From: Acidimicrobiales bacterium
Lineage (GTDB): Bacteria > Actinomycetota > Acidimicrobiia > Acidimicrobiales > VFJN01
Length of the DNA: 64,000 nucleotides
Reading direction: 5' to 3'
NCBI GenBank assembly: GCA_036563805.1
Contig: DATCLS010000102.1
Location: 67,903 to 131,902 of the forward strand
Positions 3,592 to 27,403 of this stretch are shown one piece after another (the stretch's first letter is position 1; every line of letters begins with the position of its first letter). Below the pieces are notes generated by a model that was not told the origin of the DNA, did not search any database, and worked only from the letters and a program-made list of their open reading frames with translations. The translations under genes and the position numbers were made by a program.

Positions 3592-27403
<23,812 letters not shown>

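Follow-up and report, generated by a model that had tools for sequence, protein, structure and literature searches.

What does a condensation domain do when it lacks the histidine classically called catalytic? This question is raised by the third condensation (C) domain, C3, of an NRPS (non-ribosomal peptide synthetase) encoded by an Acidimicrobiales bacterium (contig DATCLS010000102.1, positions 67,903 to 131,902 of the forward strand). The whole stretch of 64,000 nucleotides, referred to here as the window, has a G+C content of 76% and carries a single giant NRPS open reading frame (ORF) at 3096..27407; this ORF and all features whose coordinates are given below with two dots lie on the + strand. 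In C3 (aa 2791-3238; 11466..12809), the core motif HHxxxDG of NRPS C domains reads HLLLWDG. We found that C domains of this kind form a clade of their own and that the loss of the second histidine (His2) is associated with the adenylation (A) domain of the acceptor module, which is of a (hydroxy)ornithine type. Together with the products of related synthetases, this points to a C domain that would attach the peptide chain to the side-chain hydroxylamine of hydroxy-ornithine (hOrn) rather than to an α-amine.

Read in frame, nucleotides 11886..11909 are CGC CAC CTG CTC CTG TGG GAC GGC and encode R2931-H-L-L-L-W-D-G2938, the canonical form being xHHxxxDG. Leu2933 (codon 11892-11894) occupies the His2 column; when 218 related C domains were aligned with MAFFT, His stood in this column in 146 of the 146 canonical relatives. 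This bore out the original prediction, made from the sequence alone, that His2 of C3 is replaced by Leu, that Arg precedes the retained first histidine (His1) and that C3 aligns without gaps to C2, the C domain of the preceding module: the distance from an upstream conserved R-H-R to D-G was equal in C2 and C3, and both MAFFT and HMMER, which pairs the stretch with 'snHHiliDAwc' of PvdL, gave gap-free alignments. The same spacing and alignments excluded a one-residue insertion (xHxxxxDG), by which His2 would have been kept and His1 lost. As to the orthologues, in which conservation of HLxxxDG had been proposed as a check, the metagenomic ortholog L003 and the related synthetase P0249 both read RHLLLWDG.

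The two-histidine motif aside, C3 has the family and the fold of an NRPS C domain. A PF00668 match in Pfam spans aa 2795-3233, and the AlphaFold2 (AF2) model reached a predicted local distance difference test (pLDDT) score of 93 and a predicted template modelling (pTM) score of 0.90. The best structural matches in Foldseek were SrfA-C, TycB1 (TMq 0.91) and PvdL C3, with TMq values of 0.81-0.91 among the best matches, and the best sequence matches in the PDB were PvdL C3, McyB, BacC and SrfA-C (E 1e-60 to 1e-49). In keeping with a DCL-like placement, its closest relatives are DCL domains and it is located downstream of an epimerization (E) domain, here a degenerate one (E*). The C1, C4 and C5 motifs, as well as His1 and D-G, are retained. 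An earlier statement that all other C motifs look intact held insofar as these are recognisable within a confidently predicted fold; C5 and the stretch known as FENYP, however, carry substitutions specific to the clade described below.

In a search of 5.8 billion proteins, the homologs nearest to C3 likewise lacked His2. They comprised P0001 (RHLLLWDG, 65% identity to C3) and P0002 (NHLVLWDG), P0003 and P0038 from Phytohabitans (HHVLLWDG), P0004 from Actinomadura (HHLILWDG), P0092 and P0114 from Pseudonocardia (YHLLLWDG and RHLILWDG, respectively) and P0097 from Mycolicibacterium (YHFLLLDG). When 189 dereplicated C domains were placed in a neighbour-joining (NJ) tree, 33 His2-less domains, C3 included, formed one clade without any canonical member, and this clade was recovered in 170 of 200 bootstrap replicates (computed by NJ on 81 taxa). 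The His1-His2 pair of its members reads HL, HV, HF, HA, HT, QF or WF. Only two His2-less domains fell outside it: P0135 (SELILLDG) belongs to an adjoining group, and P0110 (AHRALLDG) branches in another part of the tree. The clade descends from DCL domains and is present in at least ten actinobacterial genera, among them Streptomyces, Kitasatospora, Pseudonocardia, Phytohabitans, Polymorphospora, Actinomadura, Mycolicibacterium and Rhodococcus.

In the Rhodococcus fascians-group branch, the motif reads YWFGCFDGGS, so that both histidines are gone (W-F). Its representative P0148 (L010 10001-13363), which departs furthest within the clade, is a free-standing C-A-T protein, T being the carrier domain, with the hOrn-type A domain that also follows C3; 18-143 near-identical proteins fall in its cluster, and the siderophore gene cluster of L010 also holds a stand-alone A domain and an SIP reductase. 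Fragments from Streptomyces venezuelae (P0123, P0247 and P0248) carry HHLILWDGWS ahead of a DMENLGLINK-type A domain. The opposite variant was observed as well: the C domain before the terminal hOrn module in L004 (17406-18755) and in P0249 (aa ~6072) reads HQHxLLDGWS, in which His1 is changed to Gln and His2 is kept, and the HQHxLLDGWS domains adjoin the His2-less clade in the tree.

The loss of His2 is accompanied by further changes. Position 2831 (11586..11588) is Arg in C3 and in 76% of the clade, whereas 97% of canonical domains have Gly; likewise, position 3108 (12417..12419) is Arg in C3 and in 91% of the clade versus Gln in 94% of canonical domains. In the C5 motif (12324..12359), IVGLFLNT replaces MVGLFINT, the canonical Met (88%) being Ile in the clade. 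At 12501..12524, YVLQNFQG represents the clade version of the 'VFENYP' stretch, with Glu changed to Gln, Tyr changed to Phe and Pro lost; in terms of residues, FENYP becomes LQNFx at aa 3138-3142. The clade additionally lacks a conserved Trp, Pro and Gln elsewhere in the domain. One clade-typical residue is missing from C3: at aa 2925, which is Asp in 85% of the clade, it carries His. Identity between the window and L003 amounted to 65% for C3, 67% for A2 and 67-83% for A1, compared to 38-50% for E*, which argues that C3 is under constraint and E* is not. By these comparisons, C3 is a member of a coherent clade and not a decayed domain.

We then asked which feature of the assembly line accompanies the variant motif. 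The genomic context was taken for eight variant domains besides that of the window (L001 and L003-L008, with two copies each in L006 and L007); L003 ends too early for its downstream A domain to be readable. Immediately behind the variant C domain in L001, L004-L008 and the window stands an A domain with the A4 motif 'F[SA]FDMSWEEL[LF]W', an A5 motif ending in [AT]L and, wherever the alignment allows it to be extracted, the specificity code DMENLGLINK, which we take to be equivalent to the classical ornithine code. A3, the A domain next to C3, is itself of this FDMSW/DMENLGLINK type.

For an independent sample, A3 on its own was used to search 1.84 billion representative proteins. The best 150 proteins were giant NRPSs with 716 A domains; as they were ranked by summed A-domain score and not by closeness to A3, they were used as an unbiased sample of C-A pairs. 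Where the upstream C motif was visible, His2 was absent before 30 of the 35 FDMSW-type A domains but before at most 8 of the 551 other A domains (Fisher p = 8e-38), and most of these latter cases are weak motif calls. This enrichment, together with the recurrence of HL in L003 and P0249, rules out chance or a sequencing error as the origin of the variant. Three of the five exceptions (P0265, P0295 and P0340) are LCL-type C domains ('HHIAxDEWS'), each in the second of two consecutive FDMSW modules within one protein. Since canonical HH domains serve some FDMSW modules, the type of A domain is not enough to bring about the loss of His2; the consecutive modules fit one N5-linked and one α-linked hOrn per enzyme. 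An internal control is provided by C6 of the window (22572..23945), which has a canonical HH motif (22986-23015) and feeds the terminal hOrn module, whose A domain is of a different type (motif 24645-24680; code DAWE-GFVDK). N-methylation was also considered as the cause of the loss and was rejected, given that the coelichelin-type synthetase, L001, L005, L006 and L007, and with them most clade members, have no methyltransferase (MT) insert.

The features upstream of C3 did not show any such association. As the original prediction had it, C3 follows a Ser-loading module (A2, 8286..9776; code DVWHISLVDK) and a dead E domain: in E* (10068..11465), HH is changed to HP (10542-10571), EGHGRE to ERPDR (ERPDRPD at 10914-10937) and TVGW to TVGP, and NYLG is lost. 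The donor codes before variant C domains nevertheless specify Ser in the window and L003, Thr in L007 (DFWNIGMVHK) and other residues in L001 and L004; besides Ser and Thr codes, DVLSFGAIQK and DPLLLGVVQK occur as donor codes in the clade. Similarly, the upstream E domain is intact in L001, L005, L006 and L007, absent in L004 and before the first copy in L007, and dead in the window, L003 and P0249. The loss of His2 tracks the acceptor, and neither a Ser donor nor a dead E domain. Because this clade-wide loss correlates with the hOrn-type A domain and not with upstream features, we propose a change of nucleophile, from the α-amine to the N5-hydroxylamine of the acceptor.

The products of synthetases with matching modules were considered in this light. 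For qinichelin, a heteronuclear multiple bond correlation (HMBC) from hOrn5 H-5 to Ser4 C-1 established a link from Ser to the δ-nitrogen, which the authors credit to C domain 5, thus already proposing the formation of a backbone hydroxamate by a siderophore C domain (10.1101/163170). Albachelin carries an N-α-methyl-N-δ-hydroxy-ornithine unit and three Ser (PMC6151521); its composition, which equals that predicted for the window, implies a hydroxamate within the backbone (residue-CO-N(OH)-δ-Orn), as does the composition of coelichelin. Scabichelin has an exact mass of 647.36 (PMC7692728), which by our own arithmetic fits four Orn, one Ser, three OH, two CH3 and one CHO, and the compound is called a tris-hydroxamate in the title under which scabichelin was originally published. 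Since a tris-hydroxamate with a single formyl group and one cyclic hOrn is left one hydroxamate short, scabichelin needs one in its backbone. The scabichelin-like NRPS of Phytohabitans has HHVLLWDG before its A(orn)-MT module.

CchH, the coelichelin synthetase, loads Thr in module 2 and L-N5-hydroxyornithine in module 3, and a separate protein, CchJ, is needed (PMC9854754). The coelichelin-type synthetase of S. violaceoruber/anthocyanicus/tendae (L008) has YHLLLWDG and DMENLGLINK in its last module, which belongs to the His2-less clade; it has no thioesterase (TE) and is followed by genes for an ABC exporter, an esterase and an MbtH protein, and these features fit CchH. In coelichelin, D-allo-Thr is reportedly joined to N5(OH) of the module-3 ornithine, a linkage not stated in the reviews, and a C domain forming a backbone hydroxamate is said to have been proposed for this compound as well. 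Foroxymithine reportedly contains a Ser-CO-N(OH)-Orn link. S. venezuelae makes foroxymithine via an NRPS (10.1101/2023.08.23.554472). The loss of His2 is not mentioned in the qinichelin preprint (10.1101/163170) or in the review PMC9854754.

On the analogy of these products, C3 probably acylates N5 of the hOrn bound to its carrier domain T3, leaving the α-amine free for N-methylation. The donor would be the acyl-(N5-acyl-hOrn)-Ser thioester on T2, the acceptor hOrn tethered to T3, and the chain would be passed to the N5-hydroxylamine and not to the α-amine, so as to place Ser-CO-N(OH)-(CH2)3- in the backbone. This hydroxamate would constitute the third bidentate ligand, besides the acylated hOrn at position 1 (haOrn1) and the cyclic hOrn at position 6. 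The MT insert of A3 would act on the free α-amine and thereby form N-α-methyl-N-δ-hydroxy-ornithine, as in albachelin, and C4 would then extend the chain from the ornithine carboxyl. N-alkyl-hydroxylamines have a low pKa, are largely unprotonated at neutral pH and are strong α-effect nucleophiles, a property that would make His2 unnecessary. His2 is currently thought to position the α-amino group of the acceptor (PMC10510592); it would be superfluous for a side-chain hydroxylamine, a hydrophobic residue in its place may leave space for the three methylenes, and the replacement would have come with the co-varying R2831, R3108 and LQNF. The Rhodococcus branch without either histidine fits the idea that His2 is dispensable here. 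Of the three readings offered in the original prediction, continued condensation with a dispensable His2 came nearest to this evidence; what it missed is that the loss is fixed in a clade and correlates with the acceptor rather than with anything upstream.

Several points weigh against this proposal. Two of the five exceptions among the FDMSW modules, P0252 and P0263, fit no explanation. The N5 regiochemistry is argued by analogy, and the motif was tied to the linkage through near relatives, chosen by species, synteny and architecture, of the enzymes whose products are solved, and not through the CchH, S. scabies, A. alba and MBT76 enzymes themselves. The Thr-CO-N(OH) link of coelichelin is given here as it is reportedly drawn in the published structure, and in that structure the hOrn is said to be acylated on both nitrogens behind one C domain; a His2-less C domain may therefore manage α-acylation as well. 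Finally, no ornithine N5-monooxygenase was present among the scanned ORFs of the 64-kb window, and hydroxylation of the module-3 substrate is assumed.

An ordinary peptide bond to the α-amine of (N-methyl-)(hydroxy)ornithine, with His2 dispensable and lost in co-evolution with the A domain or the acceptor side chain, is the first alternative to be weighed, and an unlikely one. Several C domains do stay active after mutation of His2 (PMC10510592), modules with an N-MT normally yield N-methyl amides, and in coelichelin (composition in PMC9854754), with one C domain before the module, the hOrn is reportedly α-acylated too. Yet the five FDMSW-type A domains served by canonical HH domains show that the loss is not imposed by the A domain. 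Moreover, unless another N5 acyl donor were at hand, residue 3 would be left as a free hydroxylamine and the product would have two hydroxamates instead of three, while the mass of scabichelin permits only one formyl group for its three hydroxamates and the nuclear magnetic resonance (NMR) data on qinichelin show the N5 link directly (10.1101/163170).

It had also been suggested that C3 modifies the Ser thioester, and a conversion to dehydroalanine, a β-lactam-type product or an ester, in the manner of CmodAA domains or NocB-C5, would be in line with its position after a Ser module, with its membership of the D-clade, from which dehydrating and β-lactam-forming C domains arose (PMC10880069), and with the lack of His2 in some CmodAA domains (PMC11342130). 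We regard this as very improbable, since the variant occurs equally after Thr and after non-Ser/Thr modules and irrespective of the state of the E domain. In sequence and fold C3 is nearest to DCL domains, with far weaker matches to the dehydrating AmbE and McyA (E = 2.5e-28 versus ~1e-60), AmbE appearing only at Foldseek rank 33. Direct reading of C3 upstream of C5 did not reveal the [K/R]SVLLAAH stretch of CmodAA domains (PMC11342130), and albachelin, scabichelin and coelichelin are described with Ser or Thr and not with dehydro residues. That C3 is instead catalytically dead like E*, with the assembly line split or the step performed in trans, might be supposed from the missing catalytic residue and the degenerate neighbour, but is hardly credible for a domain with a high-confidence fold, conserved far better than E* in L003, whose clade has been kept across many actinobacterial genera and includes a coelichelin-type synthetase with a known product, and for which the window holds no spare C domain.

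Although the NRPS ORF opens at 3096, the real start of the NRPS lies near 3588, the first ~165 codons (3096-3590) being Arg/Gly-rich and overlapping the AT gene in another frame. Six modules were distinguished: Cstarter-A1-T; C2(HH)-A2(Ser)-T-E*; C3(HL)-A3(DMENLGLINK, MT insert)-T; C4(HH)-A4(Ser)-T; C5(HH)-T-E, without an A domain; and C6(HH)-A6(DAWE-GFVDK)-T-E. From the A-domain codes, the predicted chain is N-acyl-(N5-acyl-hOrn), Ser, N-Me-(h)Orn, Ser, Ser, hOrn. For comparison with A6, the hOrn code of scabichelin is DAWEGGLVDK (PMC7692728).

On the donor side of C3, the carrier T2 (9867..10058) is of the GGDSI type usual before E domains. The change of H-H to H-P in E* is common to three related synthetases (the window; L003 8970-9750; P0249 aa ~2176), all of which have lost EGHGRE. 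The inactivation of E* is old, and the domain, maintained as a spacer, diverges faster than its neighbours. On the acceptor side, the MT-interrupted A3 extends over 12810..15740, with its A4 and A5 motifs at 13515-13550 and 13845-13883, respectively. Its N-methyltransferase insert (14373..15575; Pfam Methyltransf_11/12/25), with the S-adenosylmethionine (SAM) motif VLEIGVGSG at 14532-14558, resembles the interrupted A-MT domain of TioS (PDB 5wmm, E = 7.5e-63). The carrier T3 follows at 15768..15980 (motif at 15846-15881).

Module 5 (19300-22560, aa ~5405-6490) is a C-T-E module lacking an A domain, where P0249 has a full C-A-T; given the three Ser of albachelin, the Ser-type A4 may serve T5 in addition to T4. 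At its end the synthetase has T-E (25719-27404, aa 7542-8103) and neither a thioesterase nor a reductase, as in scabichelin-type NRPSs; in Phytohabitans, this architecture is a terminal A(hOrn)-T-E without TE (PMC7692728). The chain is presumably released when the N5-hydroxylamine of hOrn attacks, which would yield a cyclic hydroxamate. Within the window, no hydrolase resembling AmcB or CchJ was identified.

Upstream of the NRPS, an ABC transporter is followed by genes for KS (1362-2498), ACP (2515-2799) and AT (2809-3591) proteins. The NRPS itself opens with a starter-type C domain (HHILIDGAS), and the ortholog L003 also has a KR. The combination of KS-ACP-AT and a starter C domain points to a fatty or polyketide acyl group as a dedicated starter unit. 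Downstream are genes for a siderophore periplasmic binding protein (Peripla_BP_2; 27410..28474), a phosphopantetheinyl transferase (PPTase), a GNAT of the Acetyltransf_8 family (31470..32105) and a FUR-family iron regulator (34172..34615). The GNAT would supply the N5-acyl-N5-hydroxy-ornithine for module 1. The gene at 32967-34070, which adjoins the GNAT gene and that of a PaaX-like regulator, encodes a membrane protein of the fatty-acid-desaturase family whose best NCBIfam match, below the cut-off, was GntB, the L-arginine γ-hydroxylase of guanitoxin biosynthesis (9e-29); it could be a desaturase of the acyl tail or an amino-acid hydroxylase.

No formyltransferase was found among the scanned ORFs of the window. 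The chemistry calls at least for an ornithine N5-monooxygenase; the relatives L004 and L007 have one, and the cluster of the window may continue upstream of its position 1. Judged by its gene content, with hOrn/haOrn A domains, Ser modules, an A-MT domain, a terminal T-E without TE and siderophore transport genes, the window represents a hydroxamate siderophore cluster of the albachelin/scabichelin type (compare PMC7692728 and PMC6151521).

On balance, we lean towards regarding C3 and its relatives as a distinct, uncatalogued C subtype, N5-acylating or hydroxamate-forming, derived from DCL domains, devoid of His2 (mostly HΦxxΦDG) and using a side-chain hydroxylamine as the nucleophile. In a metallophore genome-mining study of 2022, the C subtypes listed as specific to metallophores were limited to VibH-like and tandem-Cy domains, with the remark that more may exist. 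Hydroxamate-forming C domains as such had already been proposed, for qinichelin (10.1101/163170); neither a sequence signature nor a separate clade was found described for such domains in the literature searched. At present, genome-mining tools read modules of this kind as plain Orn or N-methyl-Orn, and antiSMASH called the Phytohabitans module 'mOrn'. If the proposal is right, the signature (no His2, R2831, R3108, LQNF) would allow backbone hydroxamates to be predicted from sequence, and a metal-binding hydroxamate would be made by the core NRPS and not by a tailoring enzyme. It would further provide natural evidence that His2, whose role as general base or in positioning has long been debated, serves to position the α-amine, along with a clean system for mutagenesis of that role. 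The domains might also be used to build hydroxamate or isopeptide links into designed peptides.

Compared with known systems, C3 is closest to the DCL domains of PvdL (C3), SrfA-C, TycB1 and McyB (C1), with which it shares the N-terminal motif, His1, D-G and the position after an E domain, or a former one. It differs from them in having Leu for His2 and R2831, R3108 and LQNF for Gly, Gln and FENYP, in the strict pairing of its type with one type of A domain, and in the proposed nucleophile, which would be a side-chain hydroxylamine instead of an α-amine. The CmodAA domains (AmbE C2, AlbB C2/C3, McyA and BlmVI C2) are also derived from the D-clade, are often found after Ser or Thr and in a few cases lack His2 (PMC11342130); C3 is only distantly similar to them, and its trait tracks the acceptor and not a Ser/Thr donor. 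VibH and other His2-tolerant C domains demonstrate that amide bonds can be formed without a strict need for His2 (PMC10510592), but in VibH a natural histidine was removed experimentally, whereas the loss in C3 arose in nature, is fixed throughout a clade and goes along with other changes. C3 is not a Cy domain, which would carry DxxxxD.

The C domain of CchH module 3 and 'C domain 5' of QchJ belong, like C3, to hydroxamate siderophore clusters, and the coelichelin-type domain shares both the clade and the A-domain code with C3; those modules, however, lack an MT insert, and the CchH donor is D-allo-Thr delivered after a live E domain. At the level of the whole cluster, the window matches albachelin and scabichelin in predicted composition, the A-MT module, the terminal A(hOrn)-T-E without TE, the transport genes and the iron regulator. 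It departs from both in its module 5 without an A domain, in having a GNAT in place of a visible formyltransferase, and in its starter C domain and upstream KS-ACP-AT genes, which suggest an N-acyl group longer than acetyl.

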